64,000 bases of DNA from Spirochaetaceae bacterium (GCA_051531975.1 JAOPTT010000001.1:32001-96000); one strand, 5' to 3'; shown: positions 10,022-27,773, numbered from the stretch's first letter. The notes: generated by a model not told the origin, from the sequence alone. Numbers and translations: made by a program.

Positions 10022-10054
10022 CAACTAAAACTTTTGCAAAAATACACGTTATAT

Positions 10055-10116
10055 GGGGTAGTGGAAGCGAAGCTGTCACCAGGGGCCACGGGATTAGTGT
10101 CAACTAACTTTTATAG
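10055..10116 (+). repeat. Tn3-family terminal inverted repeat (tnpA 3' side)
   Basis: GGGG-starting IR; the tnpA stop codon lies inside it. Confidence 0.9.
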
Positions 10117-12839: not shown

Positions 12840-12888
12840 TACCGCCTCTTTATATGAATTATTTCCTTTAATAAGGAATAGCACATGA

Positions 12889-12951
12889 TTAATATTTTTC
12901 TTTGGTCAAAGAGGTTCGAACTTCTTCAGCAGAGATATGCGTATAAATCTG
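12889..12951 (-). pseudogene. C-terminal stub of a tyrosine recombinase (TnpI-like resolvase)
   Basis: Translates QIYTHISAEEVRTSLTKEKY*, matching the (T)QIYTH catalytic-tyrosine box; lies between the IR and tnpA. Confidence 0.6.
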
Positions 12952-12993
12952 TCAGAGCGGTATGTCTTCGTAGGTGATTGTAAATATCCTTTT

Positions 12994-13055
12994 CTATTAA
13001 AGTTAGTTTATACTAATTCCGTGGCCCCTGGTGACAGCTTCGCTTCCACTACCCC
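12994..13055 (-). repeat. Tn3-family terminal inverted repeat (tnpA 5' side)
   Basis: Reverse complement of 10055-10116. Confidence 0.9.
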
Positions 13056-13230
13056 TATTAACAATTATAGGAATAAAAAAAATTATTACATATATTTACA
13101 CATTATTTATTAAAAAATAAATAAACTTTGGGAAAAATTTAAATACATAAAAAATGGTCTAGTTCTAACTTCTTATTGTAGGTATTCTGTCTAGTGCTTA
13201 ACGTTTGTGTAGGTAAAAATGATATTTATT

Positions 13231-14571
13231 TTATGAATACTTTTTATTTTCAATCACTTCTAGAAAATCATTAATTGTTTCAAACCTATTTATATTCTGT
13301 ACTAGAATGGTATAAAAAACCCATACAACATGTAAAAACTCATCTAAAACCTCCATTTGGTCAATTGGTTGCTTTCCATGGTGTACATATCTTGAACGTA
13401 ATCCATATATCTTTTTTATAAGTTTAACAATTTTTACTCTTTCATCAGCTGTATTACCAACAATAAATGCTATTCGTTCAGATATATTTTGAGTTAATGG
13501 TTCTGTTTCATTTTTTATAATTAGACTTTCAAGACTAACAAGAACATATAGTAATTTATCATATATTTCTTTTTGTATTGTGTGTTTAGAGTAAATCTGT
13601 AGTGAATCGTATAACTTAGATTGATAATTATTTTTGTTTTCTATTCTTATTAAATCACTAAAGGATGATAAAGATGAATTTGTAAGATAATGTATAGTTT
13701 CATTTGCAATTGGGTCAACATTTACATTATTAACAATAGAAGTTTTATTGGAAACTAATTCTTGTGTATTTTTATCAATAATCAAAGTATGATTTACTTC
13801 TGATAATTTCCAAGAATTCAAATCTATATATGACTTTACAGTAATTTTTAAATTACTCATTGAAAATATTCTTAGAACCATAAATGCATCATTAATTTTA
13901 TCATATGCCATTTCCATAGCCTTATTTTTTTCTGCTTTGACTGAATATGCTGCAGCAATATAACCTTGATGATCTTTTTTAAATTTTTCAATATGATTTA
14001 AAATATTTTCATCTGATTTATCACTTTCTGAAAACCATTTGTCGATAATTGTTGGTGACATATTATATATTTGAATATTCCCTAATTTAAAGTTCGATTC
14101 AGTAAACATATTATGAATAGGTACAATAATCGTATACTCTTTTATTTCTTTTTCAAATAAATTATTCAGATATTCTAAATATGTTTCATTTGAGTTTGTT
14201 CTAATAGATATTTCTATCCAATCTTTATATATTTCAGTTAAATATTTAATGCTTAACAATTTATATTCAATCTCATTATTTAATTTTAATAAAATATTAA
14301 TTAAATCATTAAATGAATCTCTTAGTAATTGATATTTACAATTATCAAAAATAAAATAAAATCCAATTTCATTACCTAAATAATCTGAATATGAGATTTT
14401 TAATGATTGAATATCTTTAGCTGTTATTACCCCAGATACATAACAATCATTAGTTTTGGGTTTGGGTTTGGGTTTGGGATTGTTATCAATTGGTTCCATT
14501 TTAATTACTTCTATTTTTTGAGATATGTGTATTAATTTAGTATTATAATTATCAAGTGCTTTTGGGTGCAT
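13231..14571 (-). CDS. HEPN-domain protein (ApeA-like), candidate RNase effector
   Basis: C-terminal SLESL...ISERIAFI...IYGLRSRYVHHG (RxxxxH motif); RBS GGAG. Confidence 0.7.
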   Translation of the reverse strand: MHPKALDNYNTKLIHISQKIEVIKMEPIDNNPKPKPKPKTNDCYVSGVITAKDIQSLKISYSDYLGNEIGFYFIFDNCKYQLLRDSFNDLINILLKLNNEIEYKLLSIKYLTEIYKDWIEISIRTNSNETYLEYLNNLFEKEIKEYTIIVPIHNMFTESNFKLGNIQIYNMSPTIIDKWFSESDKSDENILNHIEKFKKDHQGYIAAAYSVKAEKNKAMEMAYDKINDAFMVLRIFSMSNLKITVKSYIDLNSWKLSEVNHTLIIDKNTQELVSNKTSIVNNVNVDPIANETIHYLTNSSLSSFSDLIRIENKNNYQSKLYDSLQIYSKHTIQKEIYDKLLYVLVSLESLIIKNETEPLTQNISERIAFIVGNTADERVKIVKLIKKIYGLRSRYVHHGKQPIDQMEVLDEFLHVVWVFYTILVQNINRFETINDFLEVIENKKYS

Positions 14572-14658
14572 GGTTTCTCCAATATATGTTTATTTAAATT
14601 GCTACGAGAAGGAATTTAAATTATTTGTTTTTATATAATCTAAAAAACCTTTAAACAA

Positions 14659-16341
14659 CTATGTTTTAGTATATTCATGGTATAACTTTTTTTGAATTTC
14701 TTTATCTCCATAAAAAAATCTTTCTGCTGCTAGTTCATGTTTTTTCTCTTCAGAATAATTTAAAATATTTTGCTCTAATAATTTTCTAGCACTCCATGAT
14801 CCTAAATTCGCGATAGTGTTAATTTCATTATTAAATTTCTTTAAAGCATACTCTTCCCATTCTGGAAATTTTTTAATAATAACTAATGCATAATGACCTA
14901 AATAATCATGACTAACACTACAGTGTTCTGTAGGAAACATTTCACCAAGATTTAGCTCTTTTCTCAAGGAATTATAGTTTTTTAGTTCTGTAAGAATCTT
15001 TAGTTCAAATGACCATAATGATTTTAATTTTTCAATTGCTAAATGTACTTTAAAAGATTTATCATCTTGATAGTTACGTGTAAACTTTGTTACTGCTTCT
15101 AAAGTTAATAGGTCAATTTTTCTTAGAATATTTCTATTAGAAGAAGATAATATTTGTTCCCATGAAAACTCATCATACATGTATCTAGTTGATAAATGTT
15201 CAATTTTCCCTAAATTTAGTTTTTGTGAATTAGCAATACATAAGACTTTATTTATTCTTCTATATGTATCAGAAGCTAAAAGGATAACTTTCTTATTAGG
15301 ATCATTATCAGAAAAATTTAATGTTAATTCAATTAAATACTTAATAAATACTTTTAGATCATTTTTGTCTGTCTTTGGTAAATATTGGAATTTAATATTA
15401 TTTTGATCTGCTTTCATATAATATAATAGTGAATGACAAATATAATTAGCATTATAATCTCTTTCTAATCTTGGAAACATTTTATATGGTATGAAAAATA
15501 ATTCTTTATTTATTGATAGTTCAATTAATCTATTATTCATGCTATCTAGAGAAGGGTTTGTTGGAGTTATGAAATATAGAATATCTATAATATCATCAAG
15601 AGTTTCATTGCTTTTATCATTCCAATTATCTTGTTTTATTAAACCTTTTTGTTGGAAATTTTTTAATACAAGTGACCTTTTTGATAATAATTTATCTTTA
15701 ATCAAATCAGAAAATTCATTAACTCTTTGCTGGTTGAATTCCTTATCAAATGCTTTATCAAGAACTTTCAAAACTCTTCTTTTGTAGTAAAACCATGATT
15801 GTAATGGAGATAATAAGATTTGTAACATTTCAAATGATTCTAATAGATCAGAGATTTGTATATGTAGAACAGGTTCAGTAAGGCTTTCTTCCCTATCAAA
15901 GATTTCTAGTTTTTGACCATCGCAAAGCACAATTAAAACAGAATTAATATTAGGGTGTACAGAATATTCTACTGCTTGACTAAGATCTGCATACCTAAAG
16001 TTTTTAGGTTTAATTGGTTTTTTAGCCTCAATCAACCAAAAATTTTCCTCCCATAAGAGTATTGAATAATCAATATACTTGTTCTTTTTTCCTAAAAACT
16101 GGATATTCTTTTCTCTTTTTACTGATGAGTATGTACCATGTTTATACCCTAAATGTTTTATTATTGGATCAATTATTTCTGCTCTTACATCAGCTTCTGA
16201 AAACCCTTCGACATTAATAGTTTGAATAAATTTAATTTCTTCTATTTGTGATTCACTCAATGGCTCAGGTTTTTTATATGTAAGACTAAATTGTATTAAT
16301 TCCTTTAAGGTTCTTATCTCTTTCATTTCATAATTTTCCAT
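14659..16341 (-). CDS. Protein with N-terminal HsdR_N-like PD-(D/E)xK nuclease domain
   Basis: SEADVRAEIIDPIIKHLGY...KREK...YIDY...LIEAKK...QAVEYS...VLCDG; no helicase motifs. Confidence 0.7.
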   Translation of the reverse strand: MENYEMKEIRTLKELIQFSLTYKKPEPLSESQIEEIKFIQTINVEGFSEADVRAEIIDPIIKHLGYKHGTYSSVKREKNIQFLGKKNKYIDYSILLWEENFWLIEAKKPIKPKNFRYADLSQAVEYSVHPNINSVLIVLCDGQKLEIFDREESLTEPVLHIQISDLLESFEMLQILLSPLQSWFYYKRRVLKVLDKAFDKEFNQQRVNEFSDLIKDKLLSKRSLVLKNFQQKGLIKQDNWNDKSNETLDDIIDILYFITPTNPSLDSMNNRLIELSINKELFFIPYKMFPRLERDYNANYICHSLLYYMKADQNNIKFQYLPKTDKNDLKVFIKYLIELTLNFSDNDPNKKVILLASDTYRRINKVLCIANSQKLNLGKIEHLSTRYMYDEFSWEQILSSSNRNILRKIDLLTLEAVTKFTRNYQDDKSFKVHLAIEKLKSLWSFELKILTELKNYNSLRKELNLGEMFPTEHCSVSHDYLGHYALVIIKKFPEWEEYALKKFNNEINTIANLGSWSARKLLEQNILNYSEEKKHELAAERFFYGDKEIQKKLYHEYTKT

Positions 16342-16353
16342 CCCAATGTTTAG

Positions 16354-18087
16354 TTATATTTTAATTTTTTTATGTTTTATATTAAAATATTGGAGTATTT
16401 CATCTCCAAACTGATTATATTCATCTTTGTTCATATAAGAAGGATAGTTATAATTTTCATCTATAAAATCGACAAATTTAATTGTGCTATCATTTATAAT
16501 AGAATCGCAATATTTTTGTAAACAATCACTTAGACTTATATTACCTGTATAAATCTTGGAAAAGTCACTTATATTACATATTATTGGAGCATGATATTTT
16601 ATATCTTTAACAGATATTTCATTAACATATTCTTTATTATATTTATGTATTAACAAATTTAAAAAATTAATAGAAAGAGATGATTCTTGGGTTATCACTA
16701 AATTGTATATATTTTTAATTCCACTTAAAGTACTTGAATGATCTTCCCATAAGTCTTCTGAGATACCTTTAGAGATTTTTCCATTTAGATGTAATAATTG
16801 TAATGTTCCTTTTCTTTCATTTGGAGGTAATTTGTAATAGTCTTCTTCTCCAGGATAATATAATCCATATTTAGACAAAATTTTCATTAAAATTTCTTCA
16901 TTAAAATAAGATGATAATAATCTTATTGGTAAATACCCTGCCTTTATTTCAATAAAAATAAGGCTATCATCTATTTTTATAATTAAATCAGTTATTTCTT
17001 GGCCATCAGTATATTTATTATTTAACAAATTTAGTTTCAATTTATTCTTGAAAAAATCTTCTACTGATTTCTCGAAGCAATGCCCTAAAGCATTTGATCT
17101 TAGGTCTACATTTCTTTTTTGTTCTTTTAATTCTTTATTATTTAGAAATTTATCCTCTAAATCTAGAAAAGTATTTCTAAAACATCGTTCAATAAGAATT
17201 CCTACATCTAAAATTCTATATTTGTCTTTTGATAATTTTTCTATAGGATGACACCATACAGAATAGTTATTATTTAATTGTAATTTATCTATATTTGAGA
17301 CAGTTAAATTTAAATCAAACGATTCAAAAAATGTCCTTAAATGAGTAATAAGTGTAGTACTATCATCTTTGAATTCATTAAAATCAGAGTTTAAATCGAT
17401 AATATTACTATAATCATTGGCTTTATATCTAATAATTAAACATAAATTTAAGATATAACAAGTTTTTATTTTATCTAGAATATGTATTCCAGTTTCTGAA
17501 AATAAGAGCTCATTTGCTTGCTTTCCTTCTGCTGTTTCCAAAATATCAACCATCAAATAATAATTTCTTTTAATTTCTGACAAAATTATTTTTGACTTTT
17601 CTAAATGAAAATTCGATCTAAAAAGATCCGTGAGAAGTTTTAATATATTTTCAATTGATAAATCACCATTATATTCACCATCTGTTGAAACATCCTCAAA
17701 ACAATTAATCTTAGATAACTCCTTATGTAATTGACTTATATCTATAAGTTTTTTATCAGTTTTAGATTCTACAAAACTGTTTTTCAGAATAAATAATAAG
17801 TTTTGTCTAGTTACTATAGTTGCTAATCCGTATTCTCTTTTATATTTAGAATATAGAGAACCAAATGATTTACGGCTAGTTTCATCTAGTAAATTATAAT
17901 AAAGTTGAGGATCACTTAACTGAGAGTAATAATTTAATTTAGCTAAGTATTCAATGATTGTATCACGTAATAAAGAGGGATTATAATTCTCTACAATTTC
18001 TAATAATGGTTGTTCGATATTGGATGGTGGTGATATTCCTTCATATAAATCTGTATATGCTAGCCTAGTTATTAACATTGTACTCAT
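16354..18087 (-). CDS. Hypothetical protein with C-terminal NERD-like PD-(D/E)xK nuclease domain
   Basis: GHCFEKSV...ITDLIIKIDDSLIFIEIKAG...GTLQL; start moved to ATG 18087 (RBS AAGGAG). Confidence 0.6.
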   Translation of the reverse strand: MSTMLITRLAYTDLYEGISPPSNIEQPLLEIVENYNPSLLRDTIIEYLAKLNYYSQLSDPQLYYNLLDETSRKSFGSLYSKYKREYGLATIVTRQNLLFILKNSFVESKTDKKLIDISQLHKELSKINCFEDVSTDGEYNGDLSIENILKLLTDLFRSNFHLEKSKIILSEIKRNYYLMVDILETAEGKQANELLFSETGIHILDKIKTCYILNLCLIIRYKANDYSNIIDLNSDFNEFKDDSTTLITHLRTFFESFDLNLTVSNIDKLQLNNNYSVWCHPIEKLSKDKYRILDVGILIERCFRNTFLDLEDKFLNNKELKEQKRNVDLRSNALGHCFEKSVEDFFKNKLKLNLLNNKYTDGQEITDLIIKIDDSLIFIEIKAGYLPIRLLSSYFNEEILMKILSKYGLYYPGEEDYYKLPPNERKGTLQLLHLNGKISKGISEDLWEDHSSTLSGIKNIYNLVITQESSLSINFLNLLIHKYNKEYVNEISVKDIKYHAPIICNISDFSKIYTGNISLSDCLQKYCDSIINDSTIKFVDFIDENYNYPSYMNKDEYNQFGDEILQYFNIKHKKIKI

Positions 18088-18184
18088 ACAGTATCTCCTT
18101 TTAAAGATGTAACTATTAAATATAAACCTTAGCATATAAATAATATTTAATTTGTATAGATTAGACTTCTATTTCGTTTTGCTA

Positions 18185-20674
18185 CTAGTAAATCTTTTTA
18201 GTTACTAATTGTAAATTAAATTCTTTTTTCTTTTTAGTTTGATATAATTCAATCGGAGGTAAAAATACAGACCTAGTTTTATTTTTACTTTGAATTATTG
18301 GAAGTAATATTTTGATGTATTCATCTGGAAACTTGTAACCAAGCGTAATTTTTGTAATATAAGCCCCAATTAATTTATTTTTTTCATTTGGTTTCAGTGG
18401 ATAATTATAATTGATTTTAGGATTACTAGGCTTGTATGCAAAGAGCCTATATTCATTTTCATATTTCCATGAATTATGTTTAACAAAAATTCCAGCATCA
18501 AATAGACCATATTCTTCAATTATTTTATTCTTATCAATATGGGGTGACACATATTTTACATTATTCCAACCAATATTATTTGGTAAAGATGTAATTTTAT
18601 ATGATATGCAAATACCATTGTGACTGTCTCCATAATGAGACCACATAAGAGTATTATTTTGTTCTGTTGTTAATGCGACAATACGAATATCTTTAGATTT
18701 TAATTTCCATAAATCATAATCTCCTTCATCAACCATTGTAGGTAAAGGTATATCCATTGGATCATTTAATTGATTTATTTCAGAAAAATATAGAAAATCA
18801 TTAGATATTGAATCAAGGATATTATTGTCAAACGCTTTAAATTTATGTAGTTCCCTATTTAATGTTGTAAAGCCAGATCCAATTCTATAAAAATCTTTAT
18901 ATTGAGTTTTTGTTATTGATTCAGATAGTTCTTCATATGATTGACTAATAGAATTTTCTAATGCCTCTAGTTCAACTTTTTCAATACCACGAGCTTTTAG
19001 TTTTTCTTTTTCAATATTTAATTTATTTTGTTCTCTAGTTAATCGACCTGTATCTAAAAATCCAAGCTTTAAGCTTTTTTCAATATATTCTTCTTCTAAT
19101 TTGTGGTTTTCTAAAATTCCATAACACACTCCTATATTATTTAAAGTTATAGGATTATTTGAATCATTTACTAATAATTTATCATATGTTTTAACAGCCT
19201 CTTCATACATATCTAGATCCATGAATGAACTTGCTAATCTATTCAAAAAATTAGTATCTTCTATATTATGATTTTTTGATATTTCAATAACCTTCTTATT
19301 TAATTCTGTACTTAATTTGTTTTCAATTTTATTTAATCTTTTATGTATTTCATCGTAACATTCTGACCTATAATCATTACCATCTAATAATTCTTTTGCT
19401 AATTTCTTAGCTTTAGATGTAGTGCTAAAGTTAATAGCCTCTTCAGAATATATGTTGTTGATAAAGTCTTTGGATATAACTATATCCTCAAGGTTTATTT
19501 CATTTATTTTTTTAATCTTTGAATTTATTTTATAAATAGATGCTTCAAGGTTTGCATTTAAATAAAAATATAAGCTATCTTTTATAATAGTATGATTTTT
19601 TTGAATATCTTCTTCTTTAGCAATATAGTAAGCAAAGCGACTATTCTTAATTGCATTATGATAATCATTCTGTTTCATATTTATTTTAGATTTAATAATA
19701 TATGCATATATAACTGAAATATTATCATATACATAGAAGCCAATATTTGTACTTTCTAGGATTTCATTTACAATATCAAGTGCTTTTATATTTTGATTAA
19801 GATTTTCAAGACAATCTGCAATTTGGTATCTATATTGACTAATTATTTTCTTTTGATGAATTCCTGTTTCTATACAGTTTTTTGCTAATTCATAATTATT
19901 ATTTCTATAATAATATTCATATTGATCACTATGAGAGAGGGTCTTTAAATATATATGAGCTTTTTCAATGTTGTTAATTTTTTCATAATATTTTAAATAT
20001 AACCTATTATAATTATAGCTAACATTTTTAGTTTCAATATGTTCTATATCTAGTATTATTTTCTTAGATATATCTAGGTTTTCTAAATAAATAGATATTT
20101 CAAGCAACTGCAATTTATGTCTTACTGTTGCAACATTGTCATTTATTAATTTTTGGTATTCTAGAGATAAAAATTCTAAATCAGCATTAGAATAATGTCT
20201 ATCTTCGATTTTATACAAAAATGGATTATCCATAAGATATTTAATTTTTCTTTCTAATAAATTATTATCTAAGTTTATAGCATCATTAATATACGTAAGA
20301 CCTTGAATTATATTACTTTCGATTTTGATTGTATAAACCCCTAAATAGAAGAGAGTAACTGAAGTTTTAGGGTTTAATTCTAATGAAGTGATTAAAAATT
20401 CTTTAATATCATTATGTGTATAATATGAATTTATACTATTTTGCAGCTGTTCACATGTTAGGGCTAATTGATAATAAACTAAAGATTCATTATTGCTATT
20501 CTCAAGTAAATTATTCAGAGATTCTAGTTTTTTTGATGATTGACCTGTAACATCAAATAAGAAATACCAAATATATTCTTTGTCTTTTAATATTAGGTTT
20601 TTATCATTTAGATTGAGTTTTACTTTATCATAATTCTTATCACGAAAATATTTATAAATATCTTTTTTTGCCAA
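18185..20674 (-). CDS. TPR-repeat protein with C-terminal DUF2971 domain
   Basis: TPR-like helices (SLELNPK...YLG; TLNNIGVCY); LNDPMD, NTLMWSHYGDSHNGICISY, KHNSWKYENEYR, ITLG motifs; TTG start with RBS AGGAG. Confidence 0.75.
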   Translation of the reverse strand: MAKKDIYKYFRDKNYDKVKLNLNDKNLILKDKEYIWYFLFDVTGQSSKKLESLNNLLENSNNESLVYYQLALTCEQLQNSINSYYTHNDIKEFLITSLELNPKTSVTLFYLGVYTIKIESNIIQGLTYINDAINLDNNLLERKIKYLMDNPFLYKIEDRHYSNADLEFLSLEYQKLINDNVATVRHKLQLLEISIYLENLDISKKIILDIEHIETKNVSYNYNRLYLKYYEKINNIEKAHIYLKTLSHSDQYEYYYRNNNYELAKNCIETGIHQKKIISQYRYQIADCLENLNQNIKALDIVNEILESTNIGFYVYDNISVIYAYIIKSKINMKQNDYHNAIKNSRFAYYIAKEEDIQKNHTIIKDSLYFYLNANLEASIYKINSKIKKINEINLEDIVISKDFINNIYSEEAINFSTTSKAKKLAKELLDGNDYRSECYDEIHKRLNKIENKLSTELNKKVIEISKNHNIEDTNFLNRLASSFMDLDMYEEAVKTYDKLLVNDSNNPITLNNIGVCYGILENHKLEEEYIEKSLKLGFLDTGRLTREQNKLNIEKEKLKARGIEKVELEALENSISQSYEELSESITKTQYKDFYRIGSGFTTLNRELHKFKAFDNNILDSISNDFLYFSEINQLNDPMDIPLPTMVDEGDYDLWKLKSKDIRIVALTTEQNNTLMWSHYGDSHNGICISYKITSLPNNIGWNNVKYVSPHIDKNKIIEEYGLFDAGIFVKHNSWKYENEYRLFAYKPSNPKINYNYPLKPNEKNKLIGAYITKITLGYKFPDEYIKILLPIIQSKNKTRSVFLPPIELYQTKKKKEFNLQLVTKKIY

Positions 20675-20777
20675 AATAAGCTCCTAATGATATAATATTA
20701 GTAGATAATGTTTAATTAATAAATATTATGTTTAAAATACCTATAAAGCATTAAATAATCCTTAAATCCTAAGTTCA

Positions 20778-20818
20778 ATAGAGTTATATAGAATTACGAA
20801 TTTTCCATATAACTCTAT
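20778..20818. promoter_or_regulatory. 16-bp-arm palindrome between the recombinase and the defence-like gene cluster (operator or terminator)
   Basis: ATAGAGTTATATAGAA-N9-TTCCATATAACTCTAT (1 mismatch); further half-site ATAACTCTAT at 20871. Confidence 0.55.
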
Positions 20819-20968
20819 AAAGTACCCAAACCATAATCTAATTAAAAATTCTATGTTATCCAAAAACATTATAACTCTATACAAACCAGTCTCGCCCATA
20901 ACCCCCAATCTGTATACATAACTAAAGTTATATTTTTGGCTATAAACACCCTCTTTTTACGAGTATTA

Positions 20969-21559
20969 CTAAGATTTAAGGAATTTATACAAAGTAGTCC
21001 GACTAATACCAACAGCACTAGCAACAACACTCTTTTGTTCCCCTAATGATAACAAAGCATTTATTTGTAATGCCTTTTGCTTTGTTATCTTTGTGGATCC
21101 TTTTGGCCTGCCAAGAATGACACCTCTCTCTTTAGCTCGTTGAATACCTAGCTTTGTTCTTTCACCTAACAGTTTAACTTCTCTTTTAGCTAAAGAGAGC
21201 TGCAGATCGAATATAAACTCTTCTTCTGCAGACATACCTTTCTTGATTGTTAGATTAGACATAACTACATAGATCTCAAGATCTTCTCTTACATCTGTTA
21301 TATGTCTTAGCAGCTTTAAACCATCCCTGGTGTTTCTACCTATCCTGGATATCTCTGTTACAACTATCTTTTTAACTTCAGGATTTATTATATGATCCCA
21401 GAGTTTCCGGTTCTCTAACTTGGTTTTAGATGCTGATACTTGCTCTAGAATAATGTCATTGAATTTCATATTCATCATCTCTTCGTATCGCTTAAAAAAA
21501 GTGCTATATTTATCTTTGTCCTGGTCTACAGAACTTACTCTACTGTATGCAATTATCAT
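20969..21559 (-). CDS. Serine site-specific recombinase (resolvase/invertase family)
   Basis: YSRVSS catalytic motif, VVTEISRIGRN, ERTKLG..RAKERG..LGRP, C-terminal HTH GISRTTLYK. Confidence 0.92.
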   Translation of the reverse strand: MIIAYSRVSSVDQDKDKYSTFFKRYEEMMNMKFNDIILEQVSASKTKLENRKLWDHIINPEVKKIVVTEISRIGRNTRDGLKLLRHITDVREDLEIYVVMSNLTIKKGMSAEEEFIFDLQLSLAKREVKLLGERTKLGIQRAKERGVILGRPKGSTKITKQKALQINALLSLGEQKSVVASAVGISRTTLYKFLKS

Positions 21560-21705
21560 ATGTTTTTAATTGTATAGCTGTTTTATTTACATGTATATTA
21601 CTATTTTGTTTAATTTAATCTCATGTCAGCTTATTTTTCTTACATGTTTCGGTGGTTTGACTCTGTTTGTTGTGTGTTCAGAAAAACGAACGATTATTTG
21701 GACAC
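21525..21705 (-). repeat. Copy 1 of a recombinase-promoter/crossover-site repeat
   Basis: ~100 bp (recombinase 5' end plus upstream) and a 23-bp block GTGTTCAGAAAAACGAACGATTA recur inverted at 27136-27316. Confidence 0.9.
21674..21705. promoter_or_regulatory. Putative serine-recombinase crossover site (15-bp arms, AA core)
   Basis: GTGTTCAGAAAAACG-AA-CGATTATTTGGACAC imperfect dyad, 130 bp upstream of the recombinase ATG. Confidence 0.65.
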
Positions 21706-21762
21706 TATTTATAAATAAAAAAGGCTATGTTCAGATAGCCTATAAATTAACTGATATTTTTT

Positions 21763-21798
21763 CATAAGGATAAGGTCACCTGACCTACAAAGTAGGTC
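21763..21798 (-). repeat. Cassette trailer copy 1 with GACCTAC-AAA-GTAGGTC hairpin
   Basis: About 25/35 identity to 25431-25465, inverted. Confidence 0.55.
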
Positions 21799-21839
21799 CA
21801 CAGTTATATTATGGTTTCTCTAGTTTTTAATATTGATAT

Positions 21840-22229
21840 TTATTTAAAATATTTCTTTCTTCTTAAGTTGTTTAAAAACAGTAATATAATAAAAACAATG
21901 AAATACTGAATATAGTTAATAATATAACCTTGACTTAACTCTTGCATTTTAAATTGATTAACTAACTTTGGAATCAATGCTAATAAAAGGTAAACAATGA
22001 TTGGGAGAATTCCGAATAGCTTCTTTTTAGAAACAGCAATTGCAGCTATCAGCAATAAGAGACCTAAACTAAATGATCTTACTTTAAAGAATAATGGCAT
22101 TGATTCAAAATAACTTGTAATTGGTTCAATTCCTAAATGAAACATAATAATCGTTGCTAAATTAGCAACAATATAAATCGAACTCATTATAAATAATAAC
22201 ACTATTGCTAGGCATGCTTTATTCCTCAT
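21840..22229 (-). CDS. Small multi-pass membrane protein, probable orphan immunity protein
   Basis: 129 aa, 4 TM; preceded by a broken toxin-tail-like frame ending ...FKGFGLIGE*. Confidence 0.55.
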   Translation of the reverse strand: MRNKACLAIVLLFIMSSIYIVANLATIIMFHLGIEPITSYFESMPLFFKVRSFSLGLLLLIAAIAVSKKKLFGILPIIVYLLLALIPKLVNQFKMQELSQGYIINYIQYFIVFIILLFLNNLRRKKYFK

Positions 22230-22449
22230 ATTTAATTTATTCTCCTATAAGACCAAATCCTTTAAACTTAGATTGATTTTCATCTTCAATTTTTGATTAG
22301 TACTTCTCACTTATTGGTGTTAGTTTTTCAATAGCAACTTCTTGAGATTCTATATTTTCATCATAATATTTATTACTACAATCATTCCCAGTTGCCGAAT
22401 CCAATCCGACTATTATTATTAATTGAACTTCATATGAAGTTTTTGTTTT

Positions 22450-22632
22450 TTATTTTTCTTTGGATTTATTTTTTTTAATATCAATAATAGATGTAATTAA
22501 TAAGCCAACTCCCAAAACAGCAAAAAAAATAGGTAAAGTATAATCTTTTAATTTAAAAATACTTATAGAAATAGCCGTTAATAATGCAACCTCTAATAAT
22601 ATTAGTAATATAATTCTATAAGCTTTCTTCAT
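22450..22632 (-). CDS. 60-aa two-TM protein, probable orphan immunity protein
   Basis: RBS AGGAGG, two hydrophobic helices, lysine-rich tail; preceded by stub ...ILEGQIIPNTSSIIIEKEVQ*. Confidence 0.5.
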   Translation of the reverse strand: MKKAYRIILLILLEVALLTAISISIFKLKDYTLPIFFAVLGVGLLITSIIDIKKNKSKEK

Positions 22633-22746
22633 TATTTATTATTGAACCTCCTTTTCAATGATGATACTGCTTGTGTTAGGTATAATTTGTCCTTCAAGAA
22701 TCGTAATATTGGATCTACGGCACCAGCACCTGATAGATTCTTATTT

Positions 22747-23055
22747 TTAATCTGCAATTGCTGATAAACCCCGATTCATTTCTAAAGCTTTATTACATAA
22801 ATCAATTAAATTTGTAGTAATTAAATGCAAATTATTTTCTTTATAACTTTTTCCTAAAATCTGGATTTCATCTTTGAAAGTTTGTACTTCAGATGGTGTT
22901 ATATTCACATCTTCATAATATTCACTTAACTGAAGAAATATATTTAACTTAATTTCTTTTGCTTTTTGAATTAAATCATAGTGCTCATTGGAATTCATTC
23001 CAACTTGAACTTCTGGTTTTCCTTCGTTATCTAAAATAGCAATATCAAATGACAT
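22747..23055 (-). CDS. Hypothetical cytoplasmic protein, probable orphan immunity protein
   Basis: 102 aa acidic protein directly downstream of an RHS-core mini-ORF. Confidence 0.55.
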   Translation of the reverse strand: MSFDIAILDNEGKPEVQVGMNSNEHYDLIQKAKEIKLNIFLQLSEYYEDVNITPSEVQTFKDEIQILGKSYKENNLHLITTNLIDLCNKALEMNRGLSAIAD

Positions 23056-23094
23056 TTATTTTCTCACTTAGACTATATCTGCTGCCAATCATCA

Positions 23095-23184
23095 CTAAAT
23101 TTCCTCAATAAGTCCAGTAGGATCAATAAAATTAATAGGATTGTTTTCTATATATTTATCAAAGACGCAACCATACTTAATCAT
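23095..23184 (-). pseudogene. RHS-core-end mini-ORF MIKYGCVFDKYIENNPINFIDPTGLIEEI*
   Basis: YxxNNPxxxxDPxGL is the conserved end of RHS cores, preceding toxin tips. Confidence 0.75.
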
Positions 23185-23283
23185 TTAATATCTTAACCTT
23201 TTATTATTATCTGAGCTACCAATTTAAATTTATCAAGATTTAAATTCCGAGATGAGGTAGACAGAGTGATAATTATCGGAAGT
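23128..23283 (-). repeat. Cassette leader copy 1 (~155 bp) beginning with a dif-like 28-mer
   Basis: Inverted, high-identity copy at 24758-24913. Confidence 0.9.
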
Positions 23284-23425
23284 TAAGCTTCTCAATTGAA
23301 ATAAGACAATAGGATTGAGGGATATCCATTATTTAAATTAGAACATGTAGGGAAGAAAAGGATTCTATGGAATATTACCTTTGAAGGTAATGTGTTAGCT
23401 GATTCCAGAATATTAGGCATAGTTT

Positions 23426-24172
23426 TTATTCACTAATGTATTTTTCATTAATAATTACTCCTTGTCTAATTCCTATACTAATATTGTTTCCATTATCAAT
23501 TACATGACCAAAACTTTTTGTAGAGCCTATAAATTTACCTATGAATATGGATCTATTAGATTTAATAATTTCAGACCAAATTCCCGTAGTTACCATAAAG
23601 TCAGTATTATCTTCATTTAAATTAATAGATTCTAAAAAATCTTTTTTAAAGTTGATAAAATTTTTATTGTCAAAATTTGCAAATGGGTATATTTTATTGC
23701 CATTTAAATTGAGAAATAGCATTAGTAAATGTTTTAATGATTCTTCTCCTATTTTCTGAATAACTTTAGAAGAGTTATCATCTAATTGTAGTATCTCTAT
23801 ATCATTATTATTATACATAAATGATATAGAAATATTCTCTATAAGCGACAATGAAGATCTTGATTGTATTGGAATGTTAAGTAAATCATTATGAATATTG
23901 TTTAATTCATGAGGGATGTCATTTTCTTTTATATTTCTAGAAATATTTTCCATTGTTAAAGTATATTCTTTTTCATCATTTTCAATGATATTAACATTCC
24001 AACTGACTTTATGTTGTTCAAATGGATGTGTAAAAGGGGATATATTTAAACTAATGTAATACGCATCTTTTATAGATAATATATATGAGTTTTCGTGTGA
24101 ATCTCTTGTATTAAGTGTAGTACAAGATGAAATTACTAATATAAATATGGTTATAATATAACTTTTTCTCAT
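23426..24172 (-). CDS. Hypothetical lipoprotein (possible immunity protein)
   Basis: Signal with lipobox ISSC; 248 aa. Confidence 0.6.
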   Translation of the reverse strand: MRKSYIITIFILVISSCTTLNTRDSHENSYILSIKDAYYISLNISPFTHPFEQHKVSWNVNIIENDEKEYTLTMENISRNIKENDIPHELNNIHNDLLNIPIQSRSSLSLIENISISFMYNNNDIEILQLDDNSSKVIQKIGEESLKHLLMLFLNLNGNKIYPFANFDNKNFINFKKDFLESINLNEDNTDFMVTTGIWSEIIKSNRSIFIGKFIGSTKSFGHVIDNGNNISIGIRQGVIINEKYISE

Positions 24173-24757
24173 TTACTTTTATTCCTTCATTAACCTACCC
24201 TGAGAAATAATTTAATATCAAAAATTCTGATGTGTTAGAACCTTAATAGGGTTGATCATGTTTATGTATTTTTTCTCACAAATCAATAAAAATTATTATA
24301 GCCCGTATAGTCTGCTCTGAATATACAAATAATTGCTTCTATTTTTTATTATATTCAAAATCGCATAATATAATGTAGCATCTATATATTGCGTTGAAGG
24401 CAATAAAGCTCCTTAAGATGAGTTTAAGTTTAACGTTGAAAGACTTGGACTTTAAGGAATTCAGTTTAAAGAAGTGTGTTCTAACGAATCTTAATCTTTA
24501 GGTTACTATAAAACAAAAAGTTTTAGCCTTACCCAGTAGAACAGAAGACTGGTTCTTTTGTGAAATTTTACCGAACTATTGACTTCGTTTATTGTCTTAA
24601 TTGCTAATCGTTTGGGTTATTTATACATAGGGCTGTTATACCTTCAACTAAACTAAGTTCACAACGAATAAACCGTATTCTGATCTTTCCCAAAGGGCAT
24701 TCCCTCGCTATGTGGGGTAATAGCTATACAACATACACATGCAGCAGTGAGACAGTT

Positions 24758-24913
24758 GCTTCCGATAATTATCATTCTGTCTACCTCTGATCGGAATTTA
24801 AACCTTGATAAATCTAATTAAGTAGCTCAGATAATAATTAAAGGTTAAGATATTAGAATGCTTAAATATGGTTGCATCTTGGATAAGTACATAGAAAATA
24901 ATCCGATTAACTA
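24758..24913 (+). repeat. Cassette leader copy 2 (~155 bp) beginning with a dif-like 28-mer
   Basis: GCTTCCGATAA-TTATCA-TTCTGTCTACC..., inverted relative to 23128-23283. Confidence 0.9.
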
Positions 24914-24917
24914 TTAG
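24858..24917 (+). pseudogene. RHS-core-end mini-ORF MLKYGCILDKYIENNPINY*
   Basis: Paralog of 23095-23184, truncated before DPxG. Confidence 0.7.
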
Positions 24918-24958
24918 ATTCATTTTAAGTTTTAGGCGCAGTACGCTAGGAGGTGAAA

Positions 24959-25387
24959 ATGATACAACGACTGAATGTGAGTAATTTACTAGCTTTATTG
25001 ATGTTACTTTACTGTCTATTTATACCAACATTTAAATTAAATGCTTTGAACTTTGAGAAGGAAGCAATAGATAAGATTCATGTTGTATTTAGTAATGATT
25101 ATGAGAATGGTGAATCATATGAGTTTGATATAGAAGGATATGCCAAAGATGGATTTCTTTATATTCTAACGAAATCTAAGGAAACAGATTATTTACCATT
25201 AATGGAGTTAGATGAAGGTAGTTATATAATTAGTCTAATTTCTGAAGGTGAAATTATAGAAGTTTTTAGTTTAAAATTAATTGATACTTTTCATAGGAAA
25301 AGTAATAATATCTTTTATGAGAATCTTAATCTTACAAGCGTTTTGAGAAAGCATGTAATCAAAGTTTTGACAAATAAAAAACAATAA
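24959..25387 (+). CDS. Hypothetical exported protein, probable orphan immunity protein
   Basis: RBS GGAGG before ATG 24959; signal peptide; overlaps stub FRRSTLGGENDTTTECE* (24931-24984). Confidence 0.55.
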   Translation: MIQRLNVSNLLALLMLLYCLFIPTFKLNALNFEKEAIDKIHVVFSNDYENGESYEFDIEGYAKDGFLYILTKSKETDYLPLMELDEGSYIISLISEGEIIEVFSLKLIDTFHRKSNNIFYENLNLTSVLRKHVIKVLTNKKQ

Positions 25388-25430
25388 TGATTTAATATAA
25401 CAATTTTACTATAAGAGTCCGGTGGAATAG

Positions 25431-25466
25431 AACCTACTCAATAGGTCAGTTAGCCTTGCCTTTATA
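25431..25466 (+). repeat. Cassette trailer copy 2
   Basis: ACCTACT-CAA-TAGGTCAG...CCTT, similar to 21763-21798 inverted. Confidence 0.55.
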
Positions 25467-25483
25467 GCTTTGAATTAAGTTTA

Positions 25484-25996
25484 CTATCTAAATTGCAGTC
25501 TATATGGTTTATTTAAATCCTTAATATAATATTTGATTGATGTAATCCTATGATTTTTTATTATAAAACTTTTTGTTGTTTTTCTTTCTTTAATTGAATA
25601 CGACATACCTTCATTATTAAGTTTGTTTAGGATAAAATTCCAACTAGAATCTGTTGAAATATTAAATTCATCAATAAGAAAATCGAATTCAAAATCATCA
25701 TTTGTGTTATAGAATTGAAACATAACTGAACCTATTTTTTTAGTACCTTCTGGAACATAAAAATTTAATCTATAATCATCAAAGTAATAACCAATAGATT
25801 TTGGAATAGATTCAATTTCGTATCCAATATCAATTGATTTACAAACCTCTTCGATGTCAGAACCTAATAATATAGTCTTCTCTTGATAAGTAAAGTTCTC
25901 ACCTTCAACTTTAAAGTCATACTTTTCATTACAACTTACTGTTGAGATAAATACTATAGTAATTAATAATCCACCTAAAACTCTTTTTAATTCCAC
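25484..25996 (-). CDS. Hypothetical lipoprotein, probable orphan immunity protein
   Basis: GTG start at 25996 with RBS AAGGAG, lipobox TVSC; preceded by stub ...RNLPKKFKEYDNSDCPK*. Confidence 0.55.
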   Translation of the reverse strand: MELKRVLGGLLITIVFISTVSCNEKYDFKVEGENFTYQEKTILLGSDIEEVCKSIDIGYEIESIPKSIGYYFDDYRLNFYVPEGTKKIGSVMFQFYNTNDDFEFDFLIDEFNISTDSSWNFILNKLNNEGMSYSIKERKTTKSFIIKNHRITSIKYYIKDLNKPYRLQFR

Positions 25997-26084
25997 ATAT
26001 AACTCCTTTATTTGGGACAATCACTATTGTCATATTCTTTTAAACTTCTTTGGAAGATTCCTGTAGTAAAAATCTTTTATATTA

Positions 26085-27116
26085 TTAGTCTAGTATTCCA
26101 AATTCCTCATTATCCTCAGTAAGACTAATAGTCTCAGTAGACTTAAAATCATTATAGTACTTTTTATCAAATTCAATTTCAGGATTATTGCCTTCTTTAA
26201 TCCAGGTAATTTCACTCTCAAAAATATTATTTATATATTTATTTGCTTTTACTAGTTCTTTATTTAACTCTTTATTTATTCTTTTTAGTTTATCATCATT
26301 ATTACCATTCACTTTTACACCTGTAACTTTTTGCATAGATAATGTTAGAGCTGCAATTTCTTTATAGTATTCTTTTATTTTACTTTTGTTACTATAATTA
26401 CTTGCCATTAAATAACTTCTAGCAGAAAGTAAGAAAGCTCCTTTTTCATATAACAAATCACCTAAAGCAGATAGTAAAATTGGAGAATTATAAAACCCAA
26501 ATTTTAACATTCCAGAGATTCCTATAATTGCCTTATTTCGCTCCTTTGAGTCATATTTAATACCATTTGAAACATAAATATCTTTTAAATATGAATTAAA
26601 ACTATGTTCTTTAAAATAATCATAAGTTATAACATTTGTATAATTAGTTTTTACTGAGAGAATATATTCGATAAGAAATATTTGGAATTGTTCTCTCCCA
26701 AAATGCGCATCAGGATTAATCTTTATTGATTCTTTTAGATACTTTAAACCTTCTTTTAATTGACCAGAATGTATATATATAGTCCCTAAGTTAGCTAAGG
26801 TTTCATATCTATTATTATAATCTATTAGTTGTTTATTTTGTAAATTTAGAGCTAATTGACTCTTCCCAACTTTATCATATGCAATGGCTAAATCATCTAT
26901 ATCATGCTGTGTATAAATCCCTGAACCAATTTTCTTTTTCCTATCATTAATTCTCCATTCATAAAATTCTGTAGAATGTCTTAAGAATTGTCCTGTTATA
27001 AGTTCTTGTAAACCTGGGAATGTTTGCTTTTCCATTTTAATTGTATCGTAATCCCAAGCACATGAGAAAATATTCATGGCTTTGAATAACAGTGTAATAA
27101 TCATAATTTTTTTCAT
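26085..27116 (-). CDS. Exported TPR-repeat protein
   Basis: Signal peptide; TLANLGTIYIHSG...ESIKINPDAHFGRE TPR motif. Confidence 0.65.
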   Translation of the reverse strand: MKKIMIITLLFKAMNIFSCAWDYDTIKMEKQTFPGLQELITGQFLRHSTEFYEWRINDRKKKIGSGIYTQHDIDDLAIAYDKVGKSQLALNLQNKQLIDYNNRYETLANLGTIYIHSGQLKEGLKYLKESIKINPDAHFGREQFQIFLIEYILSVKTNYTNVITYDYFKEHSFNSYLKDIYVSNGIKYDSKERNKAIIGISGMLKFGFYNSPILLSALGDLLYEKGAFLLSARSYLMASNYSNKSKIKEYYKEIAALTLSMQKVTGVKVNGNNDDKLKRINKELNKELVKANKYINNIFESEITWIKEGNNPEIEFDKKYYNDFKSTETISLTEDNEEFGILD

Positions 27117-27135
27117 ATTTTGATTATATATTGTA

Positions 27136-27316
27136 ATGTAAAATTAATCGTTCGTTTTTCTGAACACCGAACTCAATAAGTTCGGGAGACAATATATGTA
27201 ATAAAAAACAATTACTATAAGATTAAACTAAACAAAAATCTAATATACATGTAAATAAAACAGTTATACAATTAAAAACATATGATAATTGCATACAGTA
27301 GAGTAAGTTCTGTGGA
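27136..27316 (+). repeat. Copy 2 of the recombinase-promoter/crossover-site repeat (inverted)
   Basis: Crossover-like core TT at 27151-27152, 130 bp before ATG 27282, the same spacing as copy 1. Confidence 0.9.
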
Positions 27317-27317
27317 T
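27282..27317 (+). pseudogene. Truncated second serine recombinase (first 12 codons MIIAYSRVSSVD)
   Basis: Same N-terminus as 20969-21559, then unrelated sequence. Confidence 0.85.
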
Positions 27318-27516
27318 AAAATACTAAAGATATATTTACATGGTAAATTTTATTTTGATTTTTATATGTATATTACTTAAACGAGACGCCTTCTTAGATA
27401 TTACTTAAAAAACTATATTATTTATTTTGTATATAACTAAGTATATTATCCAAAAACAGTTCTAAATGTGTGTATAAATACCGTCCATATTAATAGAATA
27501 TTATTAAGAGGTTATT

Positions 27517-27773
27517 ATGGCTACTAAAACTACATGAATAGAATTCAGGACAGATGTTAATAATAAAAAAATAATAGAAAAGCTGCAATACTAACCGGCC
27601 AAACATTATCATCATATATTTTGAATAAAACACTTGATTCTGCTAAAAAAGATATTGAAGAAATTGAATCTCTTCATTTAGCTGATAAAGATAGAGATGT
27701 CTTTTATTCTTTAATAACTAATCCTCCTGCTCAAAATGAAAATCTTAAAAATTTATTTAATTTAGAACTGTAA
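27517..27773 (+). pseudogene. DUF1778 (TacA/AtaR-like) antitoxin pseudogene
   Basis: MATKTT*IEFRTD..KKIIEK/AAILTGQTLSSYIL...L.DKDRDVFYSLITNPPAQNENLK; in-frame stop plus frameshift. Confidence 0.8.

Follow-up and report, generated by a model that had tools for sequence, protein, structure and literature searches.

Background

Orphan toxin-tip/immunity modules and polyimmunity loci are thought to aid the survival of bacteria against the contact-dependent toxins of their neighbours, and have been studied mostly in proteobacteria and Bacteroidales. In orphan rhs-CT/rhsI modules, as given in the available part of the original account, a fragment of the RHS core with its DPxGL motif is followed by a variable tip and an immunity gene, the whole lying downstream of a main rhs gene; most such modules have no initiation signals, and it has been proposed that they are kept as a repertoire of immunity genes (Poole et al. 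2011, PMC3150448). Heterogeneous polyimmunity loci consist of co-directional, unrelated immunity genes, often next to XerC/D recombinases, and in the available part of that report their extended forms are given for proteobacteria, bacteroidetes, firmicutes and actinobacteria (Zhang et al. 2012, PMC3482391), whereas the genome considered here is that of a spirochaete. A third system, rAID-1, requires a XerD-like recombinase and has repeated intergenic motifs, according to the part of its description at hand (Ross et al. 2019, 10.1101/471110); all comparisons below refer to these parts of the three sources. Here we describe four leader-framed cassettes of small genes in a marine spirochaete, two of which diverge from each other within a 64,000-nucleotide (nt) stretch of a Spirochaetaceae genome, hereafter called the window.

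The window corresponds to bases 32001-96000 of contig C1 in an assembly of 5.46 Mb and 29 contigs (98.5% completeness, 2.9% contamination, G+C ~31%), and the sole sequencing run that holds its sequence is labelled as a marine metagenome. Comparisons were made with 37 further family genomes, a sample of 400 other genomes from the phylum, plasmids, a genome collection and metagenomes.

We interpret the cassettes as orphan RHS C-terminal modules in a degenerate state, whose present role is that of small immunity-gene operons, and assign this interpretation a probability of about 0.58. They work like orphan rhs-CT modules and polyimmunity loci, yet fail the defining features of each, because there is no main rhs gene, no toxin tip (in three of the four copies), only one curated immunity family in four cassettes, and a recombinase of the serine type. 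We regard them as a variant of these loci and, as no literature search was aimed at leader-framed RHS-derived cassettes, do not claim an unreported system. On this interpretation the leader would combine ~130 nt of non-RHS DNA (an inner extension, an element with a palindrome and a -35/-10-like pair, and ~95 nt of untranslated DNA) with an RHS core end, right after which the toxin domain would come in a working RHS gene. Transcription would start in the leader, or at an upstream co-directional lipoprotein gene, and end at a trailer with its terminator. The small genes would neutralise toxins from neighbouring bacteria, the presumed protective set being a cytoplasmic protein of 102 amino acids (aa) with a CdiI/DMP12-like fold, membrane proteins of two and four helices, and a secreted 142-aa protein.

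Leaders and their RHS-like ends

The two leaders of the window diverge, measure ~155-180 nt and share 85-90% identity. By repeat search and pairwise alignment they resolve into inverted-repeat arms of 97 nt (23186-23282 / 24759-24855, 90% complementary) and 54 nt (23132-23185 / 24857-24910, 85% complementary), and weaker similarity reaches ~25-30 nt further towards the centre, to ~23311 and ~24736. Two divergent cassettes with a common leader, as proposed in a preliminary description of this DNA, are thus real. Moreover, the leader is more than a local duplication of two copies: the assembly holds four full copies on three contigs, namely the two on C1, C3:109338 to 109187 and C10:287238 to 287087, with 81-88% identity to the query copy and 81-90% across the four. 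A four-way alignment starts abruptly at CTTCCGATAATTATCAYTCTGTCTAC and ends just as abruptly at the codons for ...NNPINFIDP.

Translation confirms that the leaders encode mini open reading frames (mini-ORFs), the first of which runs on into DPTGL. This mini-ORF 1 carries NNPINFIDPTGL, a PxxxxDPxGL-type RHS motif, and since it stops 4 codons beyond DPTGL it includes no toxin domain. Mini-ORF 2 is cut by a stop codon at NNPINY, ahead of the DPxGL motif, and the mini-ORF of the contig-3 copy ends with IDPTKLATS; in all three the frame closes at most 5 codons after the motif, or before it. A search of the whole assembly for RHS-type motifs returned leader 1 and the contig-10 leader only. The latter continues as a 194-aa ORF that retains a tip of 170 aa and aligns with the C-terminus of a 452-aa RHS fragment (PF05593 + PF03527), its one relative among longer proteins, at 43% identity over 178 residues. 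The alignment begins at the core end (HIEKNPINFIDPNRL / YVSNNPLKFVDPTGL) and passes through a GHG...C domain; Pfam matches of the ORF to CHAT and caspase are weak and below cut-offs. Downstream of it are two small ORFs of 25 and 64 aa.

The RHS proteins of same-genus genomes end in ...FITEDPIKDG(Q/N)NWYIYA(A/S)NNPxxxIDPTGL, and in our own reading the mini-ORF, M-IK-YG-CVFDKYIENNPINFIDPTGL, would be homologous to these ends from about its second codon, with the ATG at the position of the proline in PIKDG. At the DNA level, the alignment between leaders and same-genus RHS core ends is confined to the last ~50-80 nt, and in 4 of 20 leader/core pairs none of 100 shuffles scored higher. These comparisons support an origin of the last ~65 nt of the leader (~22 codons, ...Y-x-x-NNPxxxxDPxGL) from an RHS core end. 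The earlier proposal that the coding end of the leader is the RHS junction accordingly holds, on the homology through the intact contig-10 paralogue and on the DNA alignment to same-genus RHS ends. For the first ~100 nt of the leader we also considered decayed RHS coding sequence, which neither DNA alignment nor translation in any frame supported. Because one of the four leaders retains a tip and three do not, comparison of the copies supports a loss of the toxin domain in those three.

The resemblance to orphan rhs-CT/rhsI modules (PMC3150448) lies in a short 3' fragment of the rhs core with a PxxxxDPxGL-type motif, followed by a variable part and a small gene, in the abrupt stop of similarity between copies at the motif, and in the contig-10 copy, whose tip is related to that of a full RHS protein. 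Compared with the modules described there, however, the core contributes only ~22 codons, and ahead of these stand ~100-130 nt of conserved DNA of non-RHS origin that include an ATG and hexamers resembling a promoter; the toxin domain is missing in three of four copies; several small genes, not one, may follow a leader, and a common trailer lies at the 3' end; and the window copies are divergent instead of forming a tandem array. In addition, the cassettes are not located downstream of a full rhs gene: none lies upstream in the same orientation, and the assembly contains no match to PF05593 (RHS repeat), only one 22.5-bit fragment matching TIGR03696, and no tblastn match to an 834-aa piece of a same-genus RHS protein; at 98.5% completeness, an rhs locus may have gone unassembled. 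Apart from the four leaders, the only RHS trace in the assembly is a decayed core fragment on contig 10.

RHS core ends are common in the family, TIGR03696 being found over its cut-off in 30 of the 37 other genomes. Many occur as arrays with short open frames, 20 of them within ~65 kb in one genome (G036 C2:136972-201268) and 27 matches in another; given the size of these arrays, orphan-tip arrays are a hallmark of this bacterial family. The orphans of same-genus genomes begin at ...SPGLYYYNARWYDP, 36-63 codons ahead of the motif, and toxin-less core ends were also found in two same-genus genomes. The leader itself has a far narrower distribution, so that the proposed search of genome and relatives gave a divided answer: four copies in this assembly, but none in the other family genomes, save one weak 43-nt match of its first part, and none in the phylum sample, where five weak matches reached 40-42 bits. 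A 21-nt leader pattern had no match in the genome collection, and two metagenome matches to it showed no similarity past the pattern itself. The practical gain from the locus is modest, with the leader confined to one genome and a mechanism that is most simply ordinary recombination.

The non-RHS part of the leader includes a ~27-nt site, which in leader 1 reads CTTCCGATAATTATCACTCTGTCTACC and contains a 10-bp palindrome, GATAATTATC, overlapping a -10-like hexamer. Pairs of -35/-10-like hexamers occur at the 5' borders of leader 1 (TTGAGA-18-TATCAC) and leader 2 (GTGAGA-17-TATCAT, 24747-24775), with equivalent pairs in other copies of the site or leader (TTAACA-16-TATCAT, TTTACA-17-TATCAT), and this agreement with the promoter consensus suggests leader-driven expression at the level of consensus. 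A structured RNA was also considered for the leader and rejected: Rfam gave only a sub-threshold snoRNA match, and the fold z-scores of +0.27 and +0.34 indicate no structure.

Lone copies of the first ~27 nt are present on contig 10, at C10:278431 (minus), C10:280447 (plus) and C10:286164 (minus). A variant, CTTCCGATAATATATATTCTGTCTACTT, stands alone at C6:356281 between convergent housekeeping-type genes and recurs in the genome of another genus (G018 C103:24-66), so the motif is older and wider than the leader. Contig 10 also carries the decayed RHS core fragment, PGRYYCNTRCYNPHYVRFITEDPIKDDIN followed by a stop codon (29 codons, C10:286182-286259, plus), which converges on the end of the contig-10 cassette, has a further copy of the 27-nt leader site ~16 nt upstream, and terminates at the PIKD(G) position, i.e. 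where the RHS homology of the leader starts. An inversion junction joining this fragment and the leader was considered and dropped, the alignment being not above shuffles.

Trailers and cargo genes

At their far end, the cassettes are closed by a trailer of ~55 nt with the core ACCTAC(2-5 nt)TAGGTCAG, which occurs exactly three times in the 5.46-Mb assembly, each time 0.55-1.9 kb downstream of a leader and on the same strand (Table 1). The related hairpin trailers reported earlier for both window cassettes are thereby confirmed, with the core at three sites and always behind a leader. The contig-10 leader has no trailer in a search of the whole assembly. A terminator-like hairpin follows not only trailer 1 but likewise the trailer on contig 3.

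Between leader and trailer, cassette 1 (minus strand) contains, after the mini-ORF, genes for proteins of 102, 60 and 129 aa, and is completed by trailer and terminator, while cassette 2 (plus strand) has the 142-aa gene as its sole gene between mini-ORF and trailer. The contig-3 cassette consists of the mini-ORF, a gene of the Imm-NTF2-2 immunity family (E 3e-16, 59.8 bits vs cut-off 26), two small membrane proteins, a paralogue of the 129-aa gene, trailer and terminator. Hence cassette 1 and the contig-3 cassette have leader, last gene and trailer in common and differ in their middles. With the exception of the 129-aa gene, whose product is 74% identical to that of the last contig-3 gene, the cargo genes are single-copy in the genome. 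Each of the three toxin-less copies has, within ~50 nt of its mini-ORF, the start of a small gene whose ribosome-binding site is strong, and Shine-Dalgarno sequences at normal spacing precede the 142-aa gene (AGGAGGTG, ATG 24959), the 60-aa gene (AAGGAGG) and the 129-aa gene (TAGGAGAA).

As the conserved leader and trailer offer homology on both flanks, we suggest that the cargo would be swapped by ordinary homologous recombination, with no dedicated capture enzyme, which is simpler than active capture. The preliminary description had the leader capture its modules; we found no evidence of an active mechanism, and leader start and trailer have no repeat in common, direct or inverted (20-300 of 300 shuffles reached the observed score in 24 pairings). 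Readings as a transposon or miniature inverted-repeat transposable element, or as attC-like sites, were dropped for want of terminal repeats between leader start and trailer. The same description had listed short stubs that overlap or abut small genes. These are present as written, but their status as toxin remnants is not borne out. The frames of FRRSTLGGENDTTTECE, ...IIIEKEVQ and ...FKGFGLIGE, each closed by a stop codon, cross the Shine-Dalgarno sequence of the next gene, and ...DNSDCPK ends immediately before AAGGAG; since they cross or abut these sites, and the first of them, which follows leader 2, is in another frame than the mini-ORF, they do not testify to toxin remnants.

For the 102-aa cargo protein, a word-indexed search found no close relative, whereas an exhaustive search listed 150 proteins at E <= 0.001, nearly all of 99-104 aa, and 50 aligned members display a conserved M-S-L-D...H...R..DYYED...AIAD pattern. 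In the comparison sets it was found in none of the 37 family genomes, had no match in plasmids (three queries) and one weak match only in the phylum sample; a single-protein scan matched 601 stretches, none of which was confirmed, and ten cluster look-ups returned metagenomic singletons on short contigs. Its structure model is confident (predicted local distance difference test, pLDDT, 91.6). Foldseek ranked DMP12 first (E 0.02), and an exhaustive structural search gave DMP12 (Z 9.8), YfbM (Z 8.4) and CdiI of B. pseudomallei E479 (Z 7.2), with the next match at Z 5.5. The proposed structural comparison of the small genes with immunity families therefore brought the 102-aa protein near CdiI, yet its top match is DMP12, and the single-sequence model of the 142-aa protein is unusable (pLDDT 45.5). 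The 102-aa protein is a plausible candidate immunity protein by resemblance of its modelled fold, not by family membership. For the membrane proteins of the cassettes an immunity role is plausible by analogy, and the 60-aa protein is a possible membrane immunity protein in view of the two-helix immunity families Imm-CdiI and Imm17 tabulated in PMC3482391.

Polyimmunity loci provide a close parallel for this cargo. Like them (PMC3482391), the cassettes are composed of short, co-directional, unrelated and variable small genes, probably on one message and next to a recombinase gene; for example, the three co-directional genes of cassette 1 are unrelated, and none matches a curated immunity family. 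In contrast to the polyimmunity loci of that report, the present runs comprise 1-4 genes and each starts from a remnant of an RHS core, the four cassettes together contain a single gene of a curated immunity family, and the recombinase is of the small serine type instead of XerC/D.

Several observations weigh against our interpretation. As the assembly has no full RHS gene, the modules cannot be re-armed. The mini-ORF ATG has only AAGG at 13-14 nt upstream and no well-spaced Shine-Dalgarno sequence, and the mini-ORF peptides show many amino-acid changes among copies, fitting neutral decay. This AT-rich region shows no excess of promoter-like hexamers (32 observed vs 45.9 expected), for which reason the evidence for a leader promoter stays at the consensus level. 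With regard to the cargo, the 102-aa family has no Pfam model and 0 of 50 members match a toxin-immunity family; Z values of 7-10 are within the range reached by unrelated models, a best Z of 7-8 being common without true relatives; and DMP12 is described as a DNA mimic, not as an immunity protein. No homologue, and no family, was found for the 60-aa protein, no relatives for the 142-aa protein (best atlas score 0.87), and no homologue of the small genes of the window could be placed beside a toxin.

The missing RHS shell gene and the unconserved mini-ORF peptide also speak for a rival explanation, namely that an RHS locus, broken by mobile elements and rearrangements, left leaders, mini-ORFs and trailers behind as scars, with copies similar through common descent or gene conversion and small ORFs devoid of a defensive role. 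The lone 27-nt sites, which face no gene, point the same way, as do the toxin-less core ends of relatives, which are isolated, in unrelated contexts and behind VapBC pairs, and the mobile-element debris nearby (an IS (insertion sequence)-like Tn3 element, a TacA fragment and a duplicated recombinase start). We hold this explanation to be unlikely, though it deserves to be taken seriously, since the small genes are intact and each has a strong ribosome-binding site, the 129-aa gene has been retained in two cassettes, the 102-aa gene encodes a complete member of a conserved family and its fold is modelled with confidence, Imm-NTF2-2 is intact on contig 3, and trailer and leader are paired in three of three occurrences. 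Retention of immunity genes after toxin loss, as first proposed for this locus, agrees with the toxin-less state of three of the four copies and with Imm-NTF2-2 on contig 3, but the immunity role of the cassettes is partly supported and not proven. If the cargo genes are immunity genes, they would represent a clear case of selection for defence without offence, and the 102-aa family, widespread but lacking a Pfam model and a name in the sources consulted, would gain a function.

Table 1. Features of the cassettes and adjoining DNA; positions are those of the window unless a contig is named.
Feature	Position	Strand	Remarks
Leader 1	23132..23311	minus	~30-nt inner extension, ~27-nt site, ~95-nt non-RHS stretch, mini-ORF start
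Leader 2	24736..24913	plus	parts as in leader 1
Mini-ORF 1	23184 to 23095	minus	29 aa, MIKYGCVFDKYIENNPINFIDPTGLIEEI, then stop
Mini-ORF 2	24858..24917	plus	19 aa, MLKYGCILDKYIENNPINY, then stop
102-aa protein	22747..23055	minus	acidic, cytoplasmic, pI 4.6; first gene of cassette 1
60-aa protein	22450..22632	minus	two hydrophobic helices; AAGGAGG in front
129-aa protein	21840..22229	minus	four hydrophobic helices; constant 3' end of cassette
142-aa protein	24959..25387	plus	N-terminal hydrophobic signal-like helix; AGGAGGTG in front
Trailer 1	21763..21815	minus	short hairpin ACCTAC-TTT-GTAGGT
Trailer 2	25405..25466	plus	related to trailer 1 and contig-3 trailer
Contig-3 trailer	C3 ~107377-107440	strand of contig-3 leader	trailer core match
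Intrinsic-terminator-like hairpin and T-run	21722..21741	minus	just past trailer 1
Small serine recombinase	20969..21559	minus	196 aa; Resolvase (E 1e-16) + HTH_7
Left crossover-like site	21669..21707	plus	imperfect palindrome GTGTTCAGAAAAACG-AA-CGATTATTTGGACAC; 56 nt from trailer 1
Right crossover-like site	27134..27172	minus	inverted copy of left site
Central segment	23312..24735		between the diverging leaders
248-aa gene	23426-24172	minus	in central segment, co-directional with cassette 1
178-aa putative lipoprotein and 343-aa TPR protein	within 25484..27116	minus	likely start of 178-aa gene GTG 25998

Recombinase and palindromic sites

The recombinase gene lies 204 nt from the trailer of cassette 1, and its left palindromic site is ~110 nt upstream of the gene. 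Together with the right site, this encloses a ~5.5-kb segment of 26% G+C that contains both cassettes (26-28% GC vs ~31% in the genome), and at 27196-27316 there follows an inverted copy (88%) of the recombinase upstream region and its first 12 codons. On contig 3, an inverted pair of sites (C3:106671-106709, 111474-111516) encloses 4.8 kb around the cassette, and the 9 kb examined there showed no recombinase gene. Contig 10 has the ~34-bp palindromic site (C10:277310-277340) with a second recombinase copy of 94% amino-acid identity, adjoining two of the lone 27-nt sites. The recombinase may move or invert the ~5-kb segment as a whole.

Such an inversion could act as a switch, if the recombinase flips the ~5.5-kb segment or if recombination between the ~180-nt inverted leaders flips the central 1.4 kb; in the latter case, transcription from the lipoprotein gene and its promoter would enter either cassette 1 or cassette 2, so that the two cargo sets would be expressed in alternation. 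Besides the Resolvase and HTH_7 domains, the best NCBIfam match of the recombinase, to the Mpi-type invertase family, argues for a switch, but at 74.8 bits it is far under the cut-off of 272. The palindromic sites form inverted pairs at two loci (window, contig 3) and are beside the recombinase at two (window, contig 10), outward-facing inverted sites flank a central segment of 1.5-2 kb in the window and on contig 10, and the 248-aa gene is co-directional with cassette 1 with no terminator called between them. However, a homologous recombinase and site are found in a same-genus genome on a plasmid-like contig of 32.8 kb, where genes recognised by eye from their translations as ParA/ParB-like lie next to them; this placement suggests a resolvase. 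Furthermore, the sequences on the two outer sides of the 5.5-kb segment themselves form an inverted repeat, so that turning the segment round would hardly alter the local promoter context. In the contigs of the single run no inversion joints were found, and contig breaks and the one loose end traced (14 others exist) match paralogous repeats on contig 3, an outcome that weighs neither for nor against inversion. We consider the switch improbable. The locus is comparable to the invertible segments of Hin, Gin and Cin in having a ~190-aa serine recombinase by a segment bounded by inverted palindromic sites with an AA centre, but differs from them in that the site does not interrupt any gene, the assembled contigs showed no inversion, and the relative on the plasmid-like contig suggests a resolvase.

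An integron-like or rAID-like platform, in which leader and trailer would be the recombination sites and a dedicated recombinase would insert and excise cassettes, appears highly improbable. Consistent with it are the defined 5' and 3' ends and unrelated cargo of the cassettes, the recombinase gene ~200 nt from the end of cassette 1, and the frequent proximity of recombinases to polyimmunity loci (PMC3482391) and likewise to rAID-1 (10.1101/471110). Against it stand the dissimilarity of leader start and trailer noted above, the placement of the palindromic site only at the ends of the ~5-kb segments and not between cassettes, the lack of a tyrosine recombinase or attC-like repeat seen in the locus, and the occurrence of four cassettes in one genome with none found elsewhere. 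The difference from integrons is also apparent from the scanned ORFs, which have no integrase domain, and from the trailer, a 5-6-bp hairpin without similarity to the leader start. With rAID-1 as described (10.1101/471110) the locus has in common orphan immunity-type genes without a cognate toxin, low GC content, a recombinase and apparently acquired DNA, but the only recombinase of the locus, compared by domains, has Resolvase + HTH_7 and is not XerD-like, no intergenic repeat family exists inside the cassettes (a repeat search of 20500-27500 returned leader, trailer and site only), and, unlike arrays there of up to 31 genes, each cassette is framed by leader and trailer.

A more ambitious view would see in these segments a spirochaete counterpart of acquired interbacterial defence, with serine-recombinase-linked segments, leader/trailer-framed cassettes, exchange of cargo and inversion that switches which cassette is transcribed. 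We give it little credence; if true, orphan immunity genes would here be collected and phase-varied through a new architecture, in an assembly without an RHS toxin of its own.

Surrounding genes

Within the central segment, the 248-aa protein is a putative lipoprotein, as judged by eye from a lipobox-like ISSC at its N-terminus, and the ~560 nt that follow its gene contain no ORF of at least 40 aa. Upstream of the contig-3 leader and co-directional with it (C3:110499-111191, minus) are genes for a DUF2711 protein (E 2e-18) and a putative lipoprotein (lipobox-like LMTC by eye), an arrangement that mirrors the 248-aa gene upstream of leader 1. The 178-aa and 343-aa genes beyond cassette 2 also fall within the ~5.5-kb low-GC segment between the palindromic sites, and may belong to the system by virtue of this position.

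Further to the left, an IS-like element of the Tn3 family with 72-nt inverted repeats (89%) spans 10048-13062. Its transposase (10100-12884) is divided into two overlapping ORFs (10905-12884 and 10100-10990) and is thus probably frameshifted; as a partner of the small recombinase it was rejected, having its own inverted repeats. Between this element and the recombinase, 13231-20674 holds four large co-directional genes (446, 560, 593 and 829 aa; only 24% G+C), for which hardly any family match was found. DUF2971 and TPR were assigned to the 829-aa protein, and the 560-aa protein weakly resembles HSDR_N. The region looks like an acquired island, possibly of defence genes. To the right, a 50-aa ORF (27621-27773, plus) matches only the C-terminal half of TacA (PF08681, E 1.5e-6) and adjoins the truncated second copy of the recombinase start.

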